A stretch of 19,219 nt of DNA, taken from a virus. Below are positions 8,244 through 19,219 of this stretch, piece by piece. Each line of letters starts with the position of its first letter. Position 1 is the first letter of the stretch. The DNA is taken from UHGV virus genome UHGV-0267650. One strand, 5' to 3'. The position numbers and the translations under genes were made by a program. The notes under the pieces are model-generated. The model was given only the letters and a program-made list of their open reading frames with translations, did not search any database and was not told where the DNA came from.

Positions 8244-10207
8244 ACACCCAGCTCCTGATATTCCATTAACTTGCCGGGCGACATCATTTCAGTTGGATAA
8301 ATATTCACCGTATCAATTCTGCGGCTGTTATCCGTTACTGATTTAGAATTACTACTAATTGTTTTACTGATACCGCCTTTATCAACGCCTTTTAATTCAC
8401 CGCCAGTAGAAAGGGTATTCGTTGTCAGTGCTGGTTGAGATTCGTTCGCCAGTGAAATATCGACGCCCGGAATTTTATTGAGTTTTCCGACAATCCAGTT
8501 CCACGATTTCAGGAACCCGCCTTTGATGGTCTGCCAGACGTTATCAAACAGGGAGACAATCCCGCTGGCCATGCCGCTTAGCGCCTGTGACGGTGAAAAG
8601 CCGGTCAGCAGCGCAATAAAGCTGTTCCAGCCGTCCGTGATCCATTGCCACGCCGCGGAAAACACGCCGGCAAGCCATTCAACCACACCAGCCACGGCGG
8701 TAAACGCTGCCGTATTCATCACCGCCGCTTTCACATCATCCCAGTGTTTAATCAGCAGATAACACCCGGCAGCCAGCAGAGCAATCGCCCCGATAACCAG
8801 CAGAACCGGCCAGCTCATCAGGTTGATGCCAATACCGGCCATAATCGCCGCCATACGCACGGCCAGCAGCGTACCCCGCAGGAATTTCAGCGTCAGGTTC
8901 CACGCCACAACAGCCTTTGAGGCAATCCAGACCGTGGCCGTGTAAAACTTCGTGACCAGCGTCAGGGCGCTCCAGAGTCCCTTCAGTCCCACCAGGATAA
9001 ATTTTGAGACGCCCATGACAATATTTGTCACCGCGCCCGCTGCCGCCACGCCAAACAGCGCAAGTTGCACGTAACCAATCACCCGCGCAATGTTGGGAAA
9101 CATCTGCATCCAGCGTCCGAACGTCTGCCCCATATCGGCCAGGCGGTTCAGTACCGGGTACAGAACCGGGATCAACGTCAGTCCGATCACCGTCTGAATG
9201 GCTTTAAGGATTTGTACAAAGCGATCCCACGGCCTGACCAGCTTCCCGGCCATCTCCTGTGTACGCTTCAGCCCGTCAGAGCCGCCCAGTTCGGTGATAT
9301 TACGCTGCAGTAACGCCACATTGCCGTACAGATGTTTTATCACCGCTGAACTGTCACCAAATGCCGCATCCAGCTCCGCCTGGGCTTTCAGGTTCCCTTC
9401 CAGGCTTTTGCCGTATTTGCCCTGCAGCTTGATCAGCATTTCAGGCATGGACAGCATTTTGCCGGTGGAGTCCGTAAAGGACAGCCCAAGCTTTTTAGCG
9501 CCCTCTATCGCGCCGGTCATGAAACCTTCGTAAGCGCTGCTGGCCTCTGTTCCCAGCGTACGGTTGAGCTGTCCCAGCACCGCCAGCTGTTCATCCAGCC
9601 CGACGCCGTAGTTGGTACCGACCCCCCGCGCCCCTTCCATCAGGTCTTTAATGGTACCCATTTCGGTACCGAAGACCTTGCGCATATACACCATTTTTCC
9701 CGCCAGTTGCTCAGCGAACTGGACTTTACCCAGCCGCGCCGCATCGTCGGAAAAGTTACCGTACATCTGCCCCATGAACTCCGCCGTGTCGGCGGATGTG
9801 GATTTTAGGGCAAATGCCAGCGTATTAGCGACCTTCGTCACTCTCGGCAGCTCGCTGGCGGTAAGGCCGGCAATGGACGCGTTAATGTTCTCTGTGGATT
9901 TGACGAACTCCACCGCGCTGGCACCGTAGGTCATGCTGAACCGGAGCGCGTCACGCTGTACGGTCTTTAATGCCTGATTATCAATCCCTTTTGCGGCGGC
10001 ATCATTCAGCGCGTCGTACATTTCGATAGCCGGCGATAACGCGCCTTTTATGGCCATTCCCGTGCCAACCAGTCCCAGCACGCCGCCACCAATCTGCGAA
10101 AAGGCCGCTTTTGATTTTTCCGCAAAGCCGGTGACGCTGCCCTGCGCCTGTTTTAACGGGCGCGTCAGCTTATCAATCAGGCTTAATGTAAAATCTAACT
10201 GTTTCAT
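8240..10207 (-). CDS. Tail tape measure protein
   Basis: 655-aa ORF, the longest in the tail module. It is Ala/Gly/Leu-rich with helical N-terminal repeats and hydrophobic segments in the C-terminal half, and sits directly downstream of the chaperone/frameshift pair. Its ATG overlaps the stop of the frameshift extension. Confidence 0.8.
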   Translation of the reverse strand: MKQLDFTLSLIDKLTRPLKQAQGSVTGFAEKSKAAFSQIGGGVLGLVGTGMAIKGALSPAIEMYDALNDAAAKGIDNQALKTVQRDALRFSMTYGASAVEFVKSTENINASIAGLTASELPRVTKVANTLAFALKSTSADTAEFMGQMYGNFSDDAARLGKVQFAEQLAGKMVYMRKVFGTEMGTIKDLMEGARGVGTNYGVGLDEQLAVLGQLNRTLGTEASSAYEGFMTGAIEGAKKLGLSFTDSTGKMLSMPEMLIKLQGKYGKSLEGNLKAQAELDAAFGDSSAVIKHLYGNVALLQRNITELGGSDGLKRTQEMAGKLVRPWDRFVQILKAIQTVIGLTLIPVLYPVLNRLADMGQTFGRWMQMFPNIARVIGYVQLALFGVAAAGAVTNIVMGVSKFILVGLKGLWSALTLVTKFYTATVWIASKAVVAWNLTLKFLRGTLLAVRMAAIMAGIGINLMSWPVLLVIGAIALLAAGCYLLIKHWDDVKAAVMNTAAFTAVAGVVEWLAGVFSAAWQWITDGWNSFIALLTGFSPSQALSGMASGIVSLFDNVWQTIKGGFLKSWNWIVGKLNKIPGVDISLANESQPALTTNTLSTGGELKGVDKGGISKTISSNSKSVTDNSRRIDTVNIYPTEMMSPGKLMEYQELGV

Positions 10208-10652
10208 TCCGTGCCTTTAAATGCAGTGCTGATTCCGTTAGCAACCGCTATTCGCATATTTTCCCAGTGGCGATTATCCAGCCAGATAGCAGCGGAAATA
10301 TCATCCATGGAATCCTGACCGTGTGGTAAATAATGGCGACGCAAAATTAAATACTGTTCGAGTCCGTTCTGTTCAATTGCCCGGACTCGTTTTGTCAGTT
10401 TTTTACTTCAATTTCCAGTTCTGGCGCATAAAGTTCATTCACTTTCCCGGCCAACTGGATCGCTGCGCCCGGACGTTTCAGAATATCATCCAGCGCCTCT
10501 TTACTTTCAGCAGACACAATGCGCACAAGATAATTGTGTGCAGGTGCCACTTTATTATCCATCGCCATTTCGTTGATGAACTTATTATAAGCGGTCTGAT
10601 TCGGTTCAAAGGTGATTTCTTTTTCGCATACAACCAGATTAATTTTTTCCAT
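10204..10652 (-). CDS. Predicted -1 frameshift fusion product of the tail assembly chaperone (E+E'-like, ~146 aa)
   Basis: The -1 frame is open for 61 codons from the slippery site at 10398..10404 (LTKRVRAIEQNGLEQYLILRRHYLPHGQDSMDDISAAIWLDNRHWENMRIAVANGISTAFKGTE). It ends at a TGA that overlaps the tape measure ATG. The 0 frame and +1 frame both hit stops immediately. Confidence 0.55.
10395..10652 (-). CDS. Tail assembly chaperone (P2 gpE-like), zero-frame product
   Basis: 85-aa ORF immediately upstream of the tape measure gene. It ends ...EVKN with the canonical slippery heptamer A_AAA_AAC placed just before its TGA stop. Confidence 0.6.
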   Translation of the reverse strand: MEKINLVVCEKEITFEPNQTAYNKFINEMAMDNKVAPAHNYLVRIVSAESKEALDDILKRPGAAIQLAGKVNELYAPELEIEVKN

Positions 10653-10938
10653 AAATAACGTTCTCTCTTAAATTAATTTCATCAACAAGCGCGTTATGCC
10701 GTGCAGCACACTGCCCGTATAACTCCAGATAAAGTGTCAGTAATTCCGCCGCGTCTTTTCCCTGCGTTCCACTCAGGCGCGGCAGCTGCGTGGCGCATTT
10801 AGTTTTCAGGTTTTCCTGATAACGTACGTTCGGTACTGGTGACGGCGTCGTTGTACATGCGGACAAAGTCATCAGACAGACACTTATTGGTAAATACCGG
10901 CTTAACCACTTCCGTGCGGATTTCACGCGGTGGCGCAT
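10639..10938 (-). CDS. o-spanin (outer-membrane lipoprotein, Rz1/LysC-like)
   Basis: 99-aa ORF that starts inside the i-spanin gene in another frame and extends beyond it. It has a signal peptide with lipobox LSAC followed by a Pro-rich segment (TTTPSPVPNV), typical of o-spanins. Confidence 0.6.
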   Translation of the reverse strand: MRHRVKSARKWLSRYLPISVCLMTLSACTTTPSPVPNVRYQENLKTKCATQLPRLSGTQGKDAAELLTLYLELYGQCAARHNALVDEINLRENVIYGKN

Positions 10939-11131
10939 TTTTCAGTGCCTCCAGTTTGTCTTCCAGCCGGCGACCAGATGAACCGGCAATTTCAGCCAGT
11001 TGTTCCCCGGTCGCGGTGACCGCTTTTGAGACAGTCAGATCAACACTGTCCCGCTGCCAGCCGGCCGTTTTCCAGCCGGCTATAAATGCCAGAGCAAGGG
11101 TGAATAACCAGCCTGACACGACGCGATCCAT
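10799..11131 (-). CDS. i-spanin (inner-membrane, Rz/LysB-like)
   Basis: 110-aa ORF with an N-terminal transmembrane segment (VVSGWLFTLALAFIAGW) followed by a charged helical periplasmic region. Lies directly downstream of the endolysin with a 1-nt overlap. Confidence 0.6.
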   Translation of the reverse strand: MDRVVSGWLFTLALAFIAGWKTAGWQRDSVDLTVSKAVTATGEQLAEIAGSSGRRLEDKLEALKNAPPREIRTEVVKPVFTNKCLSDDFVRMYNDAVTSTERTLSGKPEN

Positions 11132-11472
11132 CAGCGCACCCCGTTATGTTCCAGGCTGAAATGATTACCATCAGGGCGGGATTTGAAGCGACCGCCCCAT
11201 GAACCACCCAGCGATTCCCAGTATTCACCCAGCGGCAGATACGCCGCGCTGTCGGTCTGATACTGGCCATTAATGAACAGATTGAAGTCCACGGCCAGAC
11301 GCTGCGTGTGCAGACTGCTGGAAATGCCGCTGCCTTTTTTCGCGTTCAGTGCAGCCTGTTCCGGGGTACGGTAAGCCTCACCAAACGTCAGCCGGTAGCC
11401 ATGTTCTTCAGCCCACTGGATCAGATTTGCCACCATAACGGTAAAGAGTTGCTGTTTTTCGCTCAGAGTCAT
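11131..11472 (-). CDS. Endolysin, peptidase M15-type (L-alanyl-D-glutamate peptidase-like)
   Basis: 113-aa ORF containing SLHTQRLAVDF and DGNHFSLEH, consistent with the H-x(6)-D...H zinc-binding signature of M15 phage endolysins. Flanked by a holin and spanins. Confidence 0.7.
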   Translation of the reverse strand: MTLSEKQQLFTVMVANLIQWAEEHGYRLTFGEAYRTPEQAALNAKKGSGISSSLHTQRLAVDFNLFINGQYQTDSAAYLPLGEYWESLGGSWGGRFKSRPDGNHFSLEHNGVR

Positions 11473-11765
11473 TTCCCTGTCCCTTTATCAAAAATCCCTG
11501 TAAAACCCCGCTTACGCAGCCAGGCTTCCACCACATTCTGTCCCAGAATACCCAACGCGGAGCCAAATCCGGCTAATGCGAGCGGGTGGATATCCGGGAC
11601 AAAGTACAGCGCCACCCCGGCAATCAGTGACAGTCCGCTGCCCACAATGACACGCCCCGCCACCAGGCGAAGGGTGATTGGTTCATCACTGTTGAGCAAT
11701 TTACCCAGCGCAATCAGCGCCCCCATGACTGCCAGTGCAATGAACCCCTTTTCGTACTCCTGCAT
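11469..11765 (-). CDS. Holin (three predicted transmembrane segments)
   Basis: 98-aa ORF with three hydrophobic stretches and a charged C-terminus (RKRGFTGIFDKGTGK). Sits immediately upstream of the endolysin with a 4-nt overlap. Confidence 0.6.
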   Translation of the reverse strand: MQEYEKGFIALAVMGALIALGKLLNSDEPITLRLVAGRVIVGSGLSLIAGVALYFVPDIHPLALAGFGSALGILGQNVVEAWLRKRGFTGIFDKGTGK

Positions 11766-11777
11766 CCCTGCTGCCTC

Positions 11778-12233
11778 TTATCCAATCAGGTTTTCCGTGG
11801 CTTCCGCTTCCAGATACGGCACACCGTTGATGTTGACGAACTTCGGACTTGTCACGAAGTATTTGATTTTATGCGTGGACACACTGCCACCCTTCGGATC
11901 ACCATCCAGAACGCTGTTGAGCTGCAGCTTGTTACCAAAGGTTTCCACCTTCATTTCCTCGCTGCCGGCTTTGGCGTAAAAAAGGAAGTCAACCGGAGGA
12001 ATGCCACGCCATGACCCCGCTGAACGGGCTTTGGCTGTCAGAACCTGCAGCACTTTTGAGCTGACTTCAATTTCACCCTCAGCGGCAACATCTCCGTCCA
12101 CATACCCGTCAGGGACACCGCGCGTCTGTGCCGCCGCGCTGTTATCGGTGATATCCAGCGAAATTTTTTCAATGTGGATCAGGTCACCGTCCAGATAGAT
12201 GTCAAAGGACATCCCTGAAATACGTTTGGTCAT
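11778..12233 (-). CDS. Contractile tail tube protein (P2 gpFII-like in size and position)
   Basis: 151-aa ORF directly after the sheath-sized gene, joined to it by an ATGA overlap. Size is typical of tube proteins. Confidence 0.5.
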   Translation of the reverse strand: MTKRISGMSFDIYLDGDLIHIEKISLDITDNSAAAQTRGVPDGYVDGDVAAEGEIEVSSKVLQVLTAKARSAGSWRGIPPVDFLFYAKAGSEEMKVETFGNKLQLNSVLDGDPKGGSVSTHKIKYFVTSPKFVNINGVPYLEAEATENLIG

Positions 12234-13357
12234 GCGCTGGCCTCCAGACTTGCATCCAGTAACAGACTGATGGTGATCTGCAGCGGTACTTCATACGTAC
12301 GCACCACAATGTAAATATCCACCGCCTTTTTGTTCTTCCAGACAATGGTCACGTCACCGTCCTGTGGAGGTTTCACCTCGCCCGGAAATGACACGCCGTT
12401 AATGCTGGCCGCAGTGGACATTTCCCGCAGCGGACGGGCAAACAGCGTCTGGTGTGCGGCAATACTGCCCGGTGTACTGTTAAGTGAGCGATCGGCAATC
12501 TTACCGATGGCCAGCAGACGGACGCGGCGTGCTGCCTTATCCACAATACGCAGCGTCTCAATGGACTGGTAATCGCCGCCCTCAACGTCCAGCGTGCGCC
12601 CGTCAGCCCAGTAAAAACCGTCATAGTCCGGATACCACATCGGCACGCTGTAGCGCTGTGCCTCCAGCGCCTGAAGGGTCGCCAGTTCCAGCGTTTCGCC
12701 GGCACCGTCTTTTGGCAGTTCATCGCTTCCCAGACTCAGCAACGCGCCTGTTTTCACCCGCGCCGGACTGTCGGCAATAGTGACAGCACGATTGCAGAGA
12801 CGACCAGCCAGCACGCCCGGTTCATTCCCCCAGAGACGGGGTACCAGCTGTACCGCTTTTTCCGCGATACCTTCCTGAAGGGTGGACAGACGCACCAGAT
12901 AATCCGCCTGGGCTTCATCCTGCTGCATCCCCTGAACCGCCAGAATGAACCACACCCAGCGCCCGTATTTAGCAATCAGTTCAGATCGCAGCGTTGCCGC
13001 CTGGTTAATCTGCGCTTTCGCGGCCACATCATCAGACAGCACCACACCCTCCACCGAACAGGAAACCTGTGCGGCCTTAACGGCATCCACCCATGCCCCC
13101 GGCTCACTGTCTGCGGCCAGCACATGAACAAATCCCCACCAGTTCTGGCCGGCGTTCGCCAGTGCGGCCAGCACATCACTTTTTAACGGGCTGTCACCCT
13201 CGCCCAGCAGCGCATCAAAATCACTCTGTGCGTTAACTGCCAGCGTCTTACCTACATTTTTGGTTCCCGTGCCGATAAACAGCAGCGTGCGCTCCACTTC
13301 CGTGGTTTCACCCAGCAGCTGATTTACCTGGTTTACGGTCACAATTGGCCAGGTCAT
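12230..13357 (-). CDS. Contractile tail sheath protein (P2 gpFI-like in size and position)
   Basis: 375-aa ORF preceded by GGGGGAG, followed by the tube-sized gene. Called from size and gene order, not from a recognised motif. Confidence 0.5.
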   Translation of the reverse strand: MTWPIVTVNQVNQLLGETTEVERTLLFIGTGTKNVGKTLAVNAQSDFDALLGEGDSPLKSDVLAALANAGQNWWGFVHVLAADSEPGAWVDAVKAAQVSCSVEGVVLSDDVAAKAQINQAATLRSELIAKYGRWVWFILAVQGMQQDEAQADYLVRLSTLQEGIAEKAVQLVPRLWGNEPGVLAGRLCNRAVTIADSPARVKTGALLSLGSDELPKDGAGETLELATLQALEAQRYSVPMWYPDYDGFYWADGRTLDVEGGDYQSIETLRIVDKAARRVRLLAIGKIADRSLNSTPGSIAAHQTLFARPLREMSTAASINGVSFPGEVKPPQDGDVTIVWKNKKAVDIYIVVRTYEVPLQITISLLLDASLEASA

Positions 13358-14058
13358 GCTCTCCCCCTGATATCCTGCGCGTTAACATCCCAGCCGAACC
13401 CGATAGCCTGCAGCTGTCGCGCCAGCGCTTTGTTAAAATCATCCTGACCTATCCCCAGAAACGCCCTGGCAGGTAAATCAATCTGCCAGGACGTTTTGAC
13501 CGGTTTGTCCTCCAGTATCCGGATAAGCAAACCTGCCTGTCTGGCGGTCATCCTTTCCTGTATTTCCTTATAACCGGGCTTACGCCAGCGCTTACCGCGC
13601 CTGACTTTATACCCGGCCTTGCGCAGACGTTTCGCCTGTCGAAGTGATGCAGGCTTGTCCCCCTGCTCACGGCCTTCCACCTGCTTACGGTTGACGGTCA
13701 CGCTCATGCCGTTCTGCTGGACATACCCCACCACGCCGGCAGGCAGATTTCCCTTCGCATTCCGGTAATGACCACCGGCCAGATACAGCCTGACCGACTC
13801 CGTTTCAGGCATTTCCCGGATGCGGATCAGTTTCGGCATATTGCGCAACATTTTGCCTTTACGCCGGGTCTGCCGCGCCTGCCACTTATCACCCTCCGGC
13901 GACTGCTGATTGCGCACATTACGCTTTGCTGCGGCTTCCACGCCGTATTTCGCCATACGCCACAACAGCCGGCGACGTTTCGCAGAAGGTAAATCCAGCT
14001 TTTTCAGCGCGTCCTGGAGCTGGCGGAACTGTTCCTTGTTCAGCTCGCCATTTATCAT
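13354..14058 (-). CDS. Virion morphogenesis / tail completion protein (P2 gpS / Mu gpG family-like)
   Basis: 234-aa highly basic ORF. The segment SPEGDKWQARQTRRKGKMLR resembles the conserved region of gpS-family proteins as I recall it. Lies between the head-completion and sheath genes. Confidence 0.5.
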   Translation of the reverse strand: MINGELNKEQFRQLQDALKKLDLPSAKRRRLLWRMAKYGVEAAAKRNVRNQQSPEGDKWQARQTRRKGKMLRNMPKLIRIREMPETESVRLYLAGGHYRNAKGNLPAGVVGYVQQNGMSVTVNRKQVEGREQGDKPASLRQAKRLRKAGYKVRRGKRWRKPGYKEIQERMTARQAGLLIRILEDKPVKTSWQIDLPARAFLGIGQDDFNKALARQLQAIGFGWDVNAQDIRGRA

Positions 14059-14537
14059 TCCTGCCCCTCACTGACCGGGATCACCGTCACCTCATCAGCC
14101 GTCCAGACTTCGGGGTTAGCCAGCTTCCAGCGCTGACCATCAAACGGGATCTGGCCTTTGGGATCGGGAACCAGATTCAGTTCCTCCACCATTGGCAGCG
14201 TCACCACCATGATGGCGGTTTCCTGGTCGATGGTTTCGATATCAAACTCCGGCAGCTCGGCGTCAATGCCGGTTTCCTCAAAGAGCGTGCGCTCATCCTG
14301 GCAAAGCCACGACATAAACAAAGCCATCAGGATTTTGGGATCGTACTCGCGGTAGGGATAACGCTCCCACGTCAGCACGGCGTTATAACGGATGATGGCA
14401 ATACGGTACTGCCCCAGCCCGGTGTCCCGCTGTGCCGGGATGAACGCGATCTCGTCCATCTGGCTGTCAAATCCCTGCATTGCCCGTCTGGGCATGTTGG
14501 CAATGAGAAAATCGGTTAATTCCGTTAACTGGCTCAT
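14055..14537 (-). CDS. Tail completion protein, gpR-like (tentative)
   Basis: 160-aa acidic ORF between the L-like and S-like genes with start/stop overlaps on both sides. The call rests on position only. Confidence 0.35.
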   Translation of the reverse strand: MSQLTELTDFLIANMPRRAMQGFDSQMDEIAFIPAQRDTGLGQYRIAIIRYNAVLTWERYPYREYDPKILMALFMSWLCQDERTLFEETGIDAELPEFDIETIDQETAIMVVTLPMVEELNLVPDPKGQIPFDGQRWKLANPEVWTADEVTVIPVSEGQE

Positions 14538-14986
14538 ATCATGGCCACCGTAATGCGTTTCAGCCCTTTGATGCGGCGTACTGCCAGTGTGGACTCTGCA
14601 ATCAGGCTGGAGCGGGTTTCGTCACTTTCCTGCCCCGGATGGCTCTCACGGCGACCAACAGAGGCAAACTCGCCCATCAAATCAGCTTTGGCACGTGCAT
14701 ATACCGCTTTGCGATAACGGGCGCACAACAGATTTTCGCCGTCAATTTCCACGCCCGGAACGTGCGCCGCGCGCTCATGGCCAACGCTGCGATACCTTGC
14801 CGCCACACTGACCAGATCATCATTGATTTCGCCGGCTGCAGTCAGCAGCGCCTGGCGGATGGTGGCCGCATCAATATCGGCCGGAATGGTGCGCTGGGAC
14901 TGAAAATCTTTCACGCTCAGGTCAGGCCAGAAGCCATCATTCGTCAGAGTGGCATCGTCAAAATCAATTGAAGTTCCGCTGAACAT
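14534..14986 (-). CDS. L: Head completion/stabilisation protein (P2 gpL-like)
   Basis: The ORF track extends to a GTG at 15025. The ATG at 14986 has a good RBS (GGAGAAACAGG then ATG) and gives ~150 aa. Position after the small terminase gene and sequence character fit gpL. Confidence 0.55.
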   Translation of the reverse strand: MFSGTSIDFDDATLTNDGFWPDLSVKDFQSQRTIPADIDAATIRQALLTAAGEINDDLVSVAARYRSVGHERAAHVPGVEIDGENLLCARYRKAVYARAKADLMGEFASVGRRESHPGQESDETRSSLIAESTLAVRRIKGLKRITVAMI

Positions 14987-15000
14987 CCTGTTTCTCCGGA

Positions 15001-15070
15001 AAAAAGCGGGCTGACCGGTTTCCACGGGCGATACGCTTATGCGATCCCCTCCACCGCGCCCGCTTTCGGG
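15001..15070 (-). terminator. Terminator/attenuator-like structured element with a U6 tract upstream of the L gene
   Basis: On the - strand transcript AAAGCGGGC can pair with GCCCGCUUUUUU, enclosing ~41 nt of internally pairing sequence (GGGCG...CGCCC), and is followed by six U residues. It lies in the 54-nt gap between the 63-aa ORF and the L RBS. Confidence 0.3.
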
Positions 15071-15079
15071 TCGGTAGTC

Positions 15080-15271
15080 TTACTCGCCGCGTTTTGCGGC
15101 CTGAATCTCACCTTCTTCAAACCACGCATCAGATGCGCGACCGTCAGCAGTCTGATAATGGATCAGATACTGATTGCAGCTGTTGGTGTACTCCGCACGG
15201 GCTTTGATATGCCCCTCTTCGCCGCTAATGGAAACTTCAACAACCTGGCCTAACTCATGCTTAAACGACAT
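15080..15271 (-). CDS. Small hypothetical protein (63 aa) inserted between the small terminase and head completion genes
   Basis: ORF with SD-like GGGAG about 8 nt upstream of the ATG, beginning 1 nt after the M-like stop. P2 has no gene at this position as I recall. Faint resemblance to small YodC/DUF2158-type proteins, from memory only. Confidence 0.4.
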   Translation of the reverse strand: MSFKHELGQVVEVSISGEEGHIKARAEYTNSCNQYLIHYQTADGRASDAWFEEGEIQAAKRGE

Positions 15272-15272
15272 A

Positions 15273-15986
15273 TCAAACTCCCGTAGACTCTTTTTTCAGC
15301 GCCCGCAGACGCGCAGCAATACGCTGCAACATCGTGCCAACACCACATTTAGGGTCGAATCCCTTCGCCTGCTCCAGCAGTTCCTTAGCCCGGAGCAATA
15401 CTTCCCTGTCTTCCGTTGCCGCTGCGCGTGGCTCTCCGTTTTCATCGCGTAGCAGGTGCAGACCGGCAAACTTCAGGTATTTGGCCTTAATGACCTCATA
15501 CACATTCCAGTGCTGCGTCACGTTTTCCAGCGTACGGCCAAAATACGGCTCCACATCATGCCCCTGTACGGCTTCCGCTTCCGCCCAGGACAACACCGTA
15601 TCCGCCACAAACACCGGGAACGCGCTGCCGAACGCGGCCGGGGTTTCCTGCCCCCGCTGGATTGCCACATCCGCCCAGTCCAGCGCCTGGTCAAACTGGC
15701 CTGTATCAAACAGCCAGACGACACACCAGGCAAAAACAGGATTCTGTTGCACACTGTCACCTTCCAGCCAGGATTGCGCGGTTGGCATCCAGCGCGGTAA
15801 CAGCACATCACGCTTAAATTCCATTCGCTCAGCGCGGCTTTCAATCGCTGCAGCTGCGGCGACATCTTTCTCCAGCGCGACAATCTGAATATGCAGGCTG
15901 GTTTCCGTGTCCAGAGACTGCTGCTGTCGCAGTAACCGCTCCGCTTCAATTCGTGCGCTGTGGCGCTGTGCCGGTGACAGTTGCAT
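15273..15986 (-). CDS. M: Terminase small (endonuclease) subunit, P2 gpM-like
   Basis: 237-aa ORF with N-terminal SPAQRH and internal LHLLRDENGE, matching P2 gpM as recalled (SPAQRH..., ...LFLRDGGD). RBS AAGGGGGA. Located between the capsid and head-completion genes. Confidence 0.7.
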   Translation of the reverse strand: MQLSPAQRHSARIEAERLLRQQQSLDTETSLHIQIVALEKDVAAAAAIESRAERMEFKRDVLLPRWMPTAQSWLEGDSVQQNPVFAWCVVWLFDTGQFDQALDWADVAIQRGQETPAAFGSAFPVFVADTVLSWAEAEAVQGHDVEPYFGRTLENVTQHWNVYEVIKAKYLKFAGLHLLRDENGEPRAAATEDREVLLRAKELLEQAKGFDPKCGVGTMLQRIAARLRALKKESTGV

Positions 15987-15996
15987 TAAATCCCCC

Positions 15997-17025
15997 TTAC
16001 TCGCCTGCCGGAGGCGCGACAGGTGCCCCGATAGCTACCGCACTTTCATCAAACGCGGCGTACAGTTCCGGATACTCAACCGCATAACCTTCGTTACGCA
16101 GGTATTTGTTTTCGTACTGTTTACGGTCTTCCACAAACTCCGCTTTACGCTGACGCGTGCCGCGCTGGGTGTAGATGTGCAGGTTTGGCAGTGTCGTAAC
16201 AATCATGCGTTTGCCTGGCATAAACGGCGGTACGTAAGCCGTGCGGCCAGCGATGCTGTCAGACAGCAGTTGCGCAGCGATCTTCTCCGTGGGTTTGTCT
16301 GCTTTCTGATACAGACGGAACGACTCCGCCGCGACCAGATCAGCGCCGACAAGAACCACCAGGCGTGGATCATTACGGTACTGTGCCGGGATTTTGGCGT
16401 TGATAAGGTCGGAGGCCATTGCATCCAGCGACACGTAATCGCCTTTCCCGTCACCGTCAAGCACCACCGCATCAGTGATGATCTGCTGGCCGTCCTTCCA
16501 CTCTTTGACGATCTGATGCCAGCCCTTGTTCACATCCTCGCCGTTCGGGTTGGTTTCCGCGTTCGTGGTTTCGGCTACTTTGGTACCGTTAAAGCCGATA
16601 CGCAGCATATCCAGCGCAAACGCCTGATTAGTGAACTCCTGAACACGCTGGAAAAACTCGTTTTCATCGCCGGCGTTCGCCCAGACAGAAAGCAACTGCC
16701 AGGTGAGTGCGGCGCATGAGTCGGTCTCGACCAGACTGTAATCATTACCACTCACGCCCACTTTCTTACGGAAGCGGCCATCCAGCACACGCCCGGTATA
16801 CAGGCCAGAGCTGCCAACAGGAACCACCTGCCCCTGCAGCTGATCGACATCGGCAACGGTGATCAGATTCAGGAAATCAGACTGCTCCATCAGCGCATTG
16901 CGCAGCTGAGTTTCTTTGGGGTCGGTGAGTGCAAACCAGCGTTCGCTGTCAGTCGCCCCGTAGGATTCACGCAGCCCGGTGTGATACTGAAGCAGAAACT
17001 CACGGGCTTTCGCATTTAATTGCAT
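15997..17025 (-). CDS. N: Major capsid protein, P2 gpN-like
   Basis: 342-aa ORF with RBS AAGGA. DYVSLDA, DPRLVVLVG and NLHIYT correspond to P2 gpN DYASLDA, DPDLVVIVG and NLSIYY (recalled). Confidence 0.85.
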   Translation of the reverse strand: MQLNAKAREFLLQYHTGLRESYGATDSERWFALTDPKETQLRNALMEQSDFLNLITVADVDQLQGQVVPVGSSGLYTGRVLDGRFRKKVGVSGNDYSLVETDSCAALTWQLLSVWANAGDENEFFQRVQEFTNQAFALDMLRIGFNGTKVAETTNAETNPNGEDVNKGWHQIVKEWKDGQQIITDAVVLDGDGKGDYVSLDAMASDLINAKIPAQYRNDPRLVVLVGADLVAAESFRLYQKADKPTEKIAAQLLSDSIAGRTAYVPPFMPGKRMIVTTLPNLHIYTQRGTRQRKAEFVEDRKQYENKYLRNEGYAVEYPELYAAFDESAVAIGAPVAPPAGE

Positions 17026-17059
17026 ATTCTTTTTCCTTAAAGAAAAGTAGTGTTATCCC

Positions 17060-17899
17060 TTACAGGAAATTGAAGCCTTTTTTGCCCTTGCTGAATTTCT
17101 TGTCCGGCAGTTGAGTAACTTTGTTATTCAGCTTGCTGAAGTTTTTCACCAGCTCCGGCAGGTTCCCCACCAGACGCGCAAAATCTTCGGTGTCCACCAC
17201 TTCCTTCACGGTGTCCACATCGTCCTGCACATCAGATACCGCCTCTTCCGCCTCACCCAGTCGGGTTTCAATAGCAGATACGCGCTTATCAATGGCATCC
17301 AGCGCTTCAGCCAGCGCCTGTAAGGCATCAGACTGTGAAGGTTCCTGCTCCGGGGTCTGCTCCGGTTCTTCGATACTGAAAAAATGGCGCCAGCCCTTTT
17401 TCGCTGTCTTTGACATTCCCTTTTCCTTTTTAAATTCCCTGACTTCATCAAACGCCAGCGGCTTGTATGGTCCGATGCGTTTTCCCCTGGTGCGGCTGAA
17501 ACGTAACCGTGTGGTGCTTACCCCGGCCGGACTGTCAGTAATGGCCAGTCCCTCAAGATAGGTTTTCCCGGTATTTCTGAAATTCCCGTCTGGTGTAAAC
17601 TCCGGTGATAAAAATAAAAGCTGCCCCTTCGCATTCGCCTGAAGCAATGCAATAGCCGGACAGAGTCGGGCATATAAACGAAGAATACCTTCATCATCCC
17701 GCTCTGCTTTTACTTCCAGCACTTCCCCCATATTCCCGAAATTGCGGGTATGTTCCGGCCATAACAGCGCGGTATATAAGTTGGGGTCATATAATTCAGC
17801 GGCATCAAGTAACCATTGTTCTTCAATGGTTCTTTTATCGACCGTTTCACCCGCAGTGGCGATACAAATCCAGTTTGTTGCCAGTTGTGAACCTGACAT
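17060..17899 (-). CDS. O: Capsid scaffolding protein, P2 gpO-like
   Basis: The ORF track extends to 17959, which is a GTG. The ATG at 17899 has GGAGG upstream, and from there the protein aligns with the P2 gpO N-terminus (...YDPNLYTALLWPEH versus ...FDPRVYGCRINLEH). C-terminal acidic helical region. Confidence 0.8.
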   Translation of the reverse strand: MSGSQLATNWICIATAGETVDKRTIEEQWLLDAAELYDPNLYTALLWPEHTRNFGNMGEVLEVKAERDDEGILRLYARLCPAIALLQANAKGQLLFLSPEFTPDGNFRNTGKTYLEGLAITDSPAGVSTTRLRFSRTRGKRIGPYKPLAFDEVREFKKEKGMSKTAKKGWRHFFSIEEPEQTPEQEPSQSDALQALAEALDAIDKRVSAIETRLGEAEEAVSDVQDDVDTVKEVVDTEDFARLVGNLPELVKNFSKLNNKVTQLPDKKFSKGKKGFNFL

Positions 17900-18041
17900 A
17901 TTGCCTCCATTCCTGCTGCGGTTTTCAGTATCGCCAATAAAATTAACCGCCGCATTCACTTCATTTCGGATATAGGCTATTAGCCGAACACATCAGAAAT
18001 AAAGCGGGATTTAATATACAAACGCCCGTGCATAATGTGCG
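17900..18041. promoter_or_regulatory. Divergent late promoter region between the O-like and P-like genes, with a central imperfect dyad TTCGG-N14-CCGAA at 17964..17987
   Basis: 142-bp AT-rich intergenic region between divergently oriented head genes, as in P2 where the late promoters lie here. -10-like hexamers GATACT (- strand) and TAATAT (+ strand) flank the dyad. Confidence 0.4.
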
Positions 18042-19219
18042 CATGGCTAAATATTCAGAAGAATTAAAAGGCGTTGCGCGGGCGCTTTATTTAAAACGCT
18101 ATACCACGCAGGAAATTGCCAGCGAACTTAATCTGCCTAACAGACGCATTGTCTATTACTGGGCGGAGAAATATTGCTGGGCGGAATTACTCAGTCATGA
18201 ATCCACCGAAGATGCATTAAACCGTCGCATTCAGTCACTGACATTACGTGAAGGGAAATCGGAGCTGGAGCTGCGGGAGCTGGACAATCTCGTTTCTCAC
18301 CTGGTGAAACTACGTGCACAACACAATAAGCATCAGGAAAAGCTGGCAGAAATTAAACACAGTGAAAATGATGCGCCGACGCGTCAGTCCGGTGGCGACG
18401 AAAAGCCCCGGAAACGTGGCAAGTACAAAAAGAACGACATCAGCGGACTGACACAGGAAGATTTTGACCGGTTCGCACTGGAGCACCTTTTCGGCTATCA
18501 GAAACACCTTCGCGCTAATCTTCATCAGCAAATCAGGAACATCCTGAAAAGCCGCCAGATTGGTGCAACCTGGTATTTCTCAATAGAAGCCTTTGAGAAT
18601 GCGGTCATGACAGGCGATCCGCAAATCTTCCTGTCCGCATCAAAGGCTCAGGCGGAAGTATTCCGCAGCTATATCGTCAATATTGCGGAGCAGTATTTCG
18701 GCGTGGAGCTGACGGGAAACCCCATCCGCCTCTCCAACGGCGCGGAGCTGCGATTCCTGTCCACCAACAAGAACACCGCCCAGTCATACAGCGGCCATCT
18801 GTACTGCGATGAATATTTCTGGGTACCCAACTTTGCAAAATTAAACGAAGTGGCCAGCGCGATGGCCACACACGACAAATGGCGAACCACCTACTTTTCC
18901 ACCCCCAGCAGCAAAACGCACCAAGCGTACCCGTTCTGGACTGGTGAAGAATGGAAGCGCGGTGACAAAAAACGCGCGCGCGTACAATTTCCCACGGAGA
19001 AGGAGCTGCGCGACGGTGGACGGTTATGTCCTGATGGACAGTGGCGCTACATCATCACGATGGAAGACGCGATCGCAGGCGGGTTTAATCTCGCCAGCAT
19101 CGGGAAGCTGCGCAACCGCTACAACCGCGACACTTTCAACATGCTGTATATGTGCGTGTTCGTGGACAGCAAGGACAGCGTATTTTCGTTCTCTCACGTG
19201 GAACGCTGCTGTGTAGATC
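18042..19219 (+). CDS. P: Terminase large (ATPase) subunit, P2 gpP-like; 3' end truncated by the window edge
   Basis: Open frame from the ATG at 18042 to the end of the window, 392 codons. SRQIGATWYFS, YFSTPSSK, LCPDGQWRYIITMEDAIAGG and YMCVFVDSKDSVFSF correspond to P2 gpP SRQIGATFYFA, YFSTPST, LCADGQWRQIVTIEDALAGG and FMCEFVDDKASVFPF (recalled). Confidence 0.85.

Follow-up and report, generated by a model that had tools for sequence, protein, structure and literature searches.

The window, a stretch of 19,219 nucleotides, is a prophage of the P2 family (Peduoviridae, genus Evevirus), and its 1.6 kb from 14400 to 16000 share 98.8% identity with the Escherichia phage ESSI2_ev239. Its late genes form a single long string on the minus strand. 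The scaffold gene (17060-17959, minus strand) and the major capsid gene (15997-17025, minus strand) are followed by the small terminase subunit gene M (15273..15986, minus strand), a homologue of P2 gpM (Pfam PF05944, E 5.9e-38; PHROG 74, E 1e-70), by an accessory gene of 63 aa (15080..15271, minus strand) and by L (14534..14986, minus strand), which encodes a 150-aa head completion protein or head-tail adaptor homologous to P2 gpL (Pfam PF05926, E 1.2e-45, profile positions 1-139). Past L, the string continues with tail completion, sheath, tube, lysis and more tail genes. The 285-nt region between M and L (14987-15271) is found at an identity of at least 95% in 14 of 5,426 complete E. coli genomes. 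The copy of the prophage on the chromosome of E. coli PSJ-12 (L459, 2235-3285) is a remnant, with a truncated tail gene after L and then an acyltransferase gene.

The non-coding gap between the stop codon of the 63-aa ORF and the ATG of L measures 93 nt (15079-14987). It opens, directly after the stop codon, with a single-stranded leader, GACUACCG (ACCCGAAA), at 15064..15079 (minus strand), whose CUACCG core is nearly invariant. The leader is followed by a conserved rod-shaped RNA structure (15000..15063, minus strand) that is GC-rich and ends in GCCCGCUUUUUU, with its U-run at 15005-15000. The ribosome-binding region of L, CCGGAGAAACAGG (14987..14999, minus strand), abuts this U-run and contains the motif CCGGAG; an equivalent ribosome-binding site lies behind the element in all related loci. 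The sequence-only reading of this locus was thus right in describing a 63-aa ORF with its own Shine-Dalgarno sequence and a structured gap whose U-run immediately precedes the ribosome-binding site of L. Its length for the gap, 54 nt, has to be corrected, as only an L start at GTG 15025 would give that figure.

That start is also the one of RefSeq record NC_049392 (ESSI2_ev239), where L has 163 aa (13795-14286 of that record), whereas PGAP starts L at the ATG in E. coli chromosomes (150 aa). The GTG was rejected as the true start since it falls within the RNA structure, and the extension was rejected as coding since a U-run that varies from 5 to 8 U among close relatives breaks the frame. Moreover, the Pfam GPL domain fits the 150-aa form. 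On these sequence grounds the true start of L is the ATG at 14986, and the annotation of the head-completion gene in NC_049392 thus begins within an RNA structure. An extension of M into the element by read-through or frameshift was rejected in the same way, the lengths of the C-run and of the U-run varying among relatives.

The 63-aa ORF is a real gene and has to be kept in the annotation. Its ATG is found 1 nt past the TGA of M, and its Shine-Dalgarno sequence, GGGAG, lies 6 nt upstream of this ATG, within the 3' end of M. It matches the PHROG 8618 profile with an E value of 1.2e-35 (residues 1-60 against positions 1-60 of 61), and homologues of the protein make up 54 clusters, in Enterobacterales. 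Pairwise dN/dS among the copies found at the M-L site ranges from 0.07 to 0.2, similar to that of the neighbouring L; the ORF is thus conserved as a protein and is under purifying selection. At 50.5%, its GC content is below the 56-58% of the neighbouring genes.

The structure predicted for the 63-aa protein is a confident five-stranded SH3/Tudor-like barrel, whose fold matches are HspQ, Tudor and KOW domains. The identity with the HspQ/YccV-like SH3-type barrel (PDB 5ycq) and with Tudor, KOW and PWWP small barrels is 17-18%, and the search of PDB sequences returned nothing below E 0.06, so that the likeness to HspQ/YccV is one of fold alone. Neither a YccV-like nor any other Pfam family was matched at E up to 1, apart from weak hits far below the cut-off (DUF7465, E 0.078; UBR1 wing, E 0.16); the DUF2158/YodC-like relationship (PF09926) suggested earlier was not borne out by this search. 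PADLOC and NCBIfam gave no match either. The nearest known proteins are L33 of phage phiP27, with PHROG 8618, and PHROG 1935. The core of L33 is 54% identical to the 63-aa protein; in L33 (115 aa), as in a protein of 237 aa from a Yersinia phage, the 63-aa domain is combined with extensions. L33 (L003, 3902-4249) and the protein of Yersinia phage vB_YpM_44 (L005, 3653-4366) have a C-terminal extension in common, HPGCPVFA... The predicted fold being generic, a function cannot be assigned from it.

The comparison of 79 complete related IMG/VR loci reveals that this gene is optional: it is present at the M-L site in 21, absent from 57 and replaced by a different cargo in one. Loci devoid of the 63-aa ORF include close relatives, with L at least 85% identical. 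The different cargo, in L013 (L 97% identical), is a low-GC ORF of 83 aa (MPNGQHTHSVSVNTGDF..., at about 2130-2400) that occupies exactly the site of the 63-aa ORF, possesses a Shine-Dalgarno sequence of its own and has no family match in PADLOC or NCBIfam. The insertion point of the 63-aa cassette lies between the stop codon of M and the first base of the RNA element. Comparison of the junctions indicates that the 3' end of M in the window differs from that of ORF-less relatives, its last codons having been remodelled by the cassette. In other clades, the start of the 63-aa ORF overlaps the M stop or closely trails it.

Homologues of the 63-aa ORF are also found elsewhere. Those of phiP27 (L33) and of a Morganella lambdoid prophage have the lysis cassette on one side and the packaging genes on the other; in Burkholderia phage Bcep176, the homologue sits in another region. 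A moron, in the HK97/lambda sense, is an extra gene with a promoter and a terminator of its own, located between conserved neighbours. The proposal that the 63-aa ORF is a moron-type insertion holds in that the gene is extra, is present or absent between genes otherwise parted by a fixed spacer, has a slightly lower GC content and belongs to a family, PHROG 8618, also found at the classic moron site (lysis/packaging) of lambdoid prophages. It fails on expression: unlike a moron, the ORF has no terminator of its own and no promoter, no sigma-70-like promoter site being found in the window from 10000 to 19219. Being promoterless and coupled to M in translation, it depends on the late operon for its expression. 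The 63-aa ORF is therefore mobile late-operon cargo and not a classical moron. On this reading, a promoterless cassette was inserted ahead of a non-coding element that already followed the M stop codon, and it is translated through coupling to M. Since the gene lies inside the late operon and always adjoins packaging genes, its product is most likely a small adaptor or binding protein that acts in lytic growth; a role as lysogenic-conversion factor is unlikely.

The RNA element behind this gene was characterized by minimum free energy folding, covariation, a covariance model and comparison with the kink-turn consensus. In the window, the base of the rod is a helix P1, (AAA)GCGGGC/GCCCGC(UUU), continued by a helix P2, CGGU/ACCG; past P2 come a kink-turn-like loop (GGA opposite GUGGAA) and an apical hairpin, P3, and the rod ends in U6 (15005-15000). 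The consensus drawn from 36 distinct enteric sequences comprises the leader, P1 extended by A/G-U pairs, P2 of the form CGGN/NCCG, an asymmetric purine loop and P3. The 64-nt rod has a minimum free energy of -30.3 kcal/mol, and the probability of P1 in its context is about 0.65. Compared with shuffled sequences, the folding energy of the structure is unexceptional (z = -0.96); it is covariation, rather than energy, that places the structure beyond chance.

In the enteric set, RNAalifold finds compensatory changes in 8 of 18 pairs, one P2 pair occurring as UA (14 sequences), CG (7), GC (6) and AU (6). Standard pairs fill 97.8% of the cells over the 36 sequences, against 35-47% when the partners are slid. 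Changes on both sides are seen at 9 pairs of the rod, the observed covariation score was reached by none of 500 shuffles, and a second covariation analysis of the same set had a similar outcome. Unpaired positions are also invariant, namely the CUACCG of the leader (columns C6, T7, A8, C10 and G11 of alignments A1 and A2) and junction residues. G-U pairs are tolerated only on the sense strand of the late transcript, and the structure therefore belongs to the sense transcript.

The enteric covariance model recognizes a sole copy in the window, at 15000-15082, with 84 bits. Loose DNA patterns run on viral and genome collections returned mostly chance matches and were usable only once filtered by this model. 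Among the pattern matches listed, copies of the model are confined to P2-like contigs. The pattern and the model make no reference to L, and all 11 copies among the matches listed lie between M and L homologues (one in Symbiopectobacterium, three in Xenorhabdus, one in Photorhabdus, two in Erwinia and four in IMG/VR contigs). Searches of Rfam 15 gave no relevant match, either for the window from 14800 to 15400 (E up to 10) or for 10 loci of other clades (E up to 1). The element is thus structured on the sense strand, ancestral and tied to the M-L junction. An exception in the way M ends was seen in L030 (about 2380-2500), where M has no stop before the element: its frame continues across the leader, P1 and P2 and closes at a TAA within the apical loop. 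The start codon of L is GTG in this locus.

The same element of about 95 nt separates the M stop from the ribosome-binding site of L in relatives that lack the 63-aa ORF, such as Cronobacter phage ESSI-2 and the loci L015, L016 and L024, including loci with L 87-92% identical; some of these ORF-less relatives match the element of the window nearly base for base. The element occurs at the M-L junction of most Peduoviridae sampled. In P2 itself, where the sequence-only reading took M and L to be adjacent, the two genes are in fact parted by a gap of 99 nt, in which a comparable long hairpin and a leader like that of the window are found. M-L gaps of about 95-175 nt are found in Yersinia vB_YenM_324, Salmonella SI7, Aeromonas phiO18P, Vibrio K139, Pseudomonas phi3 and P2. 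Haemophilus phage HP2 has no intergenic element, its M overlapping L by 8 nt (L291, 701-708), so that one genus at least can do without the structure.

About 125 further distinct loci reveal one shared plan at almost every junction: a stop codon, a leader (C)GACUACC with a C-rich tail, a GC-rich P1, P2, a purine loop, an apical hairpin, a short U-rich spacer, a Shine-Dalgarno sequence and a start codon. In the Vibrio alignment, compensatory changes are found in P1, P2 and the apical stem. The 34 Pseudomonas-type sequences, folded singly, all give the rod, with differing helix sequences; MAFFT followed by RNAalifold recovers 3 pairs only, the alignment not being structure-consistent, so the rod of this type is based on 34 individual folds, a weaker kind of evidence than covariation. 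The Pseudomonas-type loci L317-L402 have a leader, (C)GACUACC, related to that of the window; it closes with a C-run of about 6-10 C, and the apical loop CCAUUUAUGG is strongly conserved across many otherwise divergent copies (about 30-100 nt upstream of L). The enteric model (R1) detects the Yersinia and Salmonella SI7 types and finds no match in the P2, Vibrio (K139) or Pseudomonas types. Because of this failure, it is position, leader and architecture that suggest a deep homology of the P2, Vibrio and Pseudomonas elements with the enteric one. The hairpin of the window is one instance of a conserved RNA structure, absent from Rfam, that is seen in P2-family phages of Enterobacterales, Vibrio and Pseudomonas.

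The M-L junction accepts cargo on either side of this element. In two Vibrio K139-like loci (L297 and L314, about 250-700), the element and L are separated by a gene for a membrane protein of about 110-125 aa. With three different inserted genes observed, the junction is a cargo hot spot.

The internal loop of the rod deserves a separate description. A kink-turn consists of a C stem ending in C-G, a 3-nt bulge, tandem G.A/A.G pairs and an NC stem. The loop of the element reads NC-stem/N-G-A/GG on its 5' strand and CC/N-U-G/G-A/N/NC-stem on its 3' strand, and all 36 enteric sequences agree with the kink-turn consensus at the sequence level. Positions 1b2b are GA, 1n is A and L3 is G in 36 of 36; 2n is G in 31 and A in 5, A at 2n being a natural variant already known; -1n/-2n are GG, and -1b is C in 35 of 36. 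The 3b.3n pair is A.G in 16 sequences, U.G in 11, U.U in 5, C.U in 3 and A.U in one. The copies from Xenorhabdus, Photorhabdus and Erwinia retain the consensus. In the Vibrio clade, the loop reads CUGGC-GA-GG/CC-GUC-GA-CCCAG and a Watson-Crick alternative, CGA/UCG, is available. The Pseudomonas-type loop places GGA or GAA opposite (N)GAAA; it has tandem purines and departs from the full consensus.

This layout of stem, bulge and G.A pairs is that of kink-turn RNAs such as rRNA Kt-7, box C/D RNAs and the SAM-I riboswitch. The 3b.3n pair is non-Watson-Crick, A.G as in Kt-7 or U.U as in box C/D. Unlike these known kink-turns, the loop of the element is known from sequence alone, and the host has no known L7Ae-type binders. 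We know of no description of a kink-turn motif within a terminator-like hairpin of a phage mRNA.

An attenuator-type role of the hairpin and U-run, as put forward by the sequence-only reading, is plausible. The hairpin with U6 is the local form of an ancestral structured RNA carried by the late mRNA at the M/L junction. Features of a terminator are present, namely a 9-bp A/G-C closing helix and then U6, (AAA)GCGGGC...GCCCGC(UUU)UUU in the window. In the enteric clade, U5-8 stands directly 3' of P1, and the A/G residues 5' of P1 pair with the first U's; in 27 of the 36 enteric sequences, five or more of the 8 nt that follow P1 are U. The most likely local role is that of a leaky intrinsic terminator, of a 3'-end-protecting hairpin or of both, the outcome of which would be more message for scaffold, capsid and terminase than for head completion and the downstream genes. 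Sheath and tube are required in high copy and their genes come later in the string, so any termination must be partial. Any role of the kink-turn-like loop is likewise putative.

Comparable devices exist. Intra-operon terminators or attenuators and 3'-stabiliser hairpins are, like the element, GC-rich helices with a U-run between cistrons of one operon, and REP or hairpin stabilisers occur in the malEFG and puf operons. The element is placed, as such stabilisers are, after the genes needed in highest copy. Furthermore, the GenBank record of P2 annotates a putative attenuator upstream of gene R in the O operon, the same operon as that of the element, and leaves the M-L gap unannotated. Unlike known terminators and attenuators, the element is 64 nt long and has conserved internal loops and a conserved single-stranded leader. 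The literature searched contains no transcript-end data for the phage of the window or its relatives and no paper describing a terminator or a structure between M and L.

Several observations argue against termination as the whole story. The hairpin is large rather than compact, P1 enclosing about 50 nt with two further helices and internal loops, which is too much for a simple terminator scan (consensus, loop of 3-8) to report the site. In the Pseudomonas clade (CCCUAUUUGAG) and the Vibrio clade (ACCUAUUUAGAG) the rod is kept with no U-tract next to it, and two enteric sub-clades have a weak one (UUUACC and UUCUUA). Since sister clades lack the U-tract, termination cannot be what conserves the structure across clades. 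A terminator needs neither an invariant leader nor an invariant kink-turn-like loop, and here unpaired bases are invariant and the leader is conserved in very distant hosts. An anti-terminator hairpin between the leader and the 5' strand of P1 was tried and rejected, being no better than with shuffled leaders in 13 representatives (fraction of shuffles as good, 0.07-0.88); in the context of the window, this alternative fold does compete, P1 having a probability of about 0.65, and it has no comparative support.

Taken as a whole, the locus is best read, with somewhat better than even confidence, as two independent features, an optional late gene and an ancestral RNA that would act as a leaky terminator or stabiliser. 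The joint arrival of the ORF and of the hairpin with U6, as one moron-type unit carrying its terminator, deserves almost no credence. The ORF is optional, slightly lower in GC than its neighbours and directly followed by the hairpin; yet this insertion of the two together, assumed by the sequence-only reading, is refuted by ORF-less loci with a nearly identical element at the same place (ESSI-2, L015, L016 and L024). Also against it are P2 and other genera with a comparable element at the M-L junction, the other contexts in which the ORF homologues of phiP27 and Morganella prophages reside, the lack of any element copy in the phiP27 locus (L003) under the enteric covariance model and the lack of a promoter. 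It is also very improbable that the conserved sequence acts as DNA, either as a single-strand hairpin signal for replication or packaging or as a recombination anchor for swapping cargo genes. Cargo genes do differ on either side of the element, whose nucleotide conservation exceeds that of the flanking genes, but compensatory changes and G-U (G-T) pairs suit the sense strand of the late transcript only, the element is always oriented with the operon and located between cistrons, and a recombination anchor has no need of covarying helices.

Two further explanations keep the element as an RNA. It could be mainly a translational device that couples or limits the translation of L between a stop codon and the next ribosome-binding site, by holding the cistron ends together or by masking the site until the upstream ribosome terminates, the U-run then serving, ahead of the Shine-Dalgarno sequence, as a mere spacer or enhancer rich in A and U. 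Across all clades the element starts 0-7 nt after the stop and ends 3-30 nt before the Shine-Dalgarno sequence, its position is the same whether M, the 63-aa ORF or the L013 cargo provides the stop, and the Pseudomonas and Vibrio clades conserve the structure and not the U-tract. We nevertheless regard this explanation as rather unlikely. A helix "P0" between the leader and the L Shine-Dalgarno sequence can be drawn by eye (CU-A-CCG/CGG-AG in enterics, CCG-A-CU/AG-CGG in Pseudomonas, CUCCUA/UAGAGAG in Vibrio), but in RNAduplex the duplexes of 24 representatives are no stronger than those of 500 shuffled leaders each (fraction of shuffles as good, 0.06-0.99); the cargo between element and L in the Vibrio loci L297 and L314 implies that the element is not tied to the ribosome-binding site of L; and HP2 does without a gap entirely. 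A slightly smaller chance is given to a protein-binding or self-folding regulatory RNA, that is, either a stable processed RNA or a kink-turn domain to which a factor of the phage or the host binds; its resemblance to a terminator in enteric phages would then be a secondary matter. The kink-turn consensus, present in all 36 enteric sequences with its non-Watson-Crick 3b.3n pair and retained in Xenorhabdus, Photorhabdus and Erwinia, speaks for such an RNA, as do the invariance of the unpaired leader CUACCG and junction residues and the lack of a matching Rfam family. To our knowledge, however, Enterobacterales have no kink-turn-binding protein of the L7Ae type, and the related phage genome has none annotated; the Pseudomonas-type loop lacks the G.A consensus on its long strand, the Vibrio clade has the Watson-Crick alternative CGA/UCG, and a separate promoter or processing site is without support.

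A wider reading, held tentatively and well short of even confidence, is that the M/L junction carries an uncatalogued class of cis-acting RNA, made of the leader and the kink-turn or tandem-GA rod, whose conserved function is not simple termination. Such an RNA could be a factor- or ribosome-dependent switch that sets the ratio of head to tail expression; it could also be a fixed landmark beside which cargo genes are exchanged. The late operons of P2-family phages are a textbook system, known for promoter regulation by Ogr. A kink-turn-like RNA within the main late operon of several genera suggests an unstudied post-initiation control of the dosage of head versus downstream genes.

Besides the M-L junction, the late string of the window has one other sizeable gap, the only one, at 10653-10798 (minus strand; 146 nt by the reference annotation), flanked by an Rz-like spanin gene and tail chaperone genes. 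Either the 99-aa ORF listed for 10639-10938 or a second late promoter could lie there. A small hairpin, GCCGC-N5-GCGGC (15086..15100, minus strand), also present in the predicted minimum free energy structure, lies in the last codons of the 63-aa ORF. Its stem is preserved despite varying C-terminal residues (AAKRGE, AAVSGE, AAASGE, AAPRGA), which may reflect an RNA-level constraint or the boundary of a cassette.
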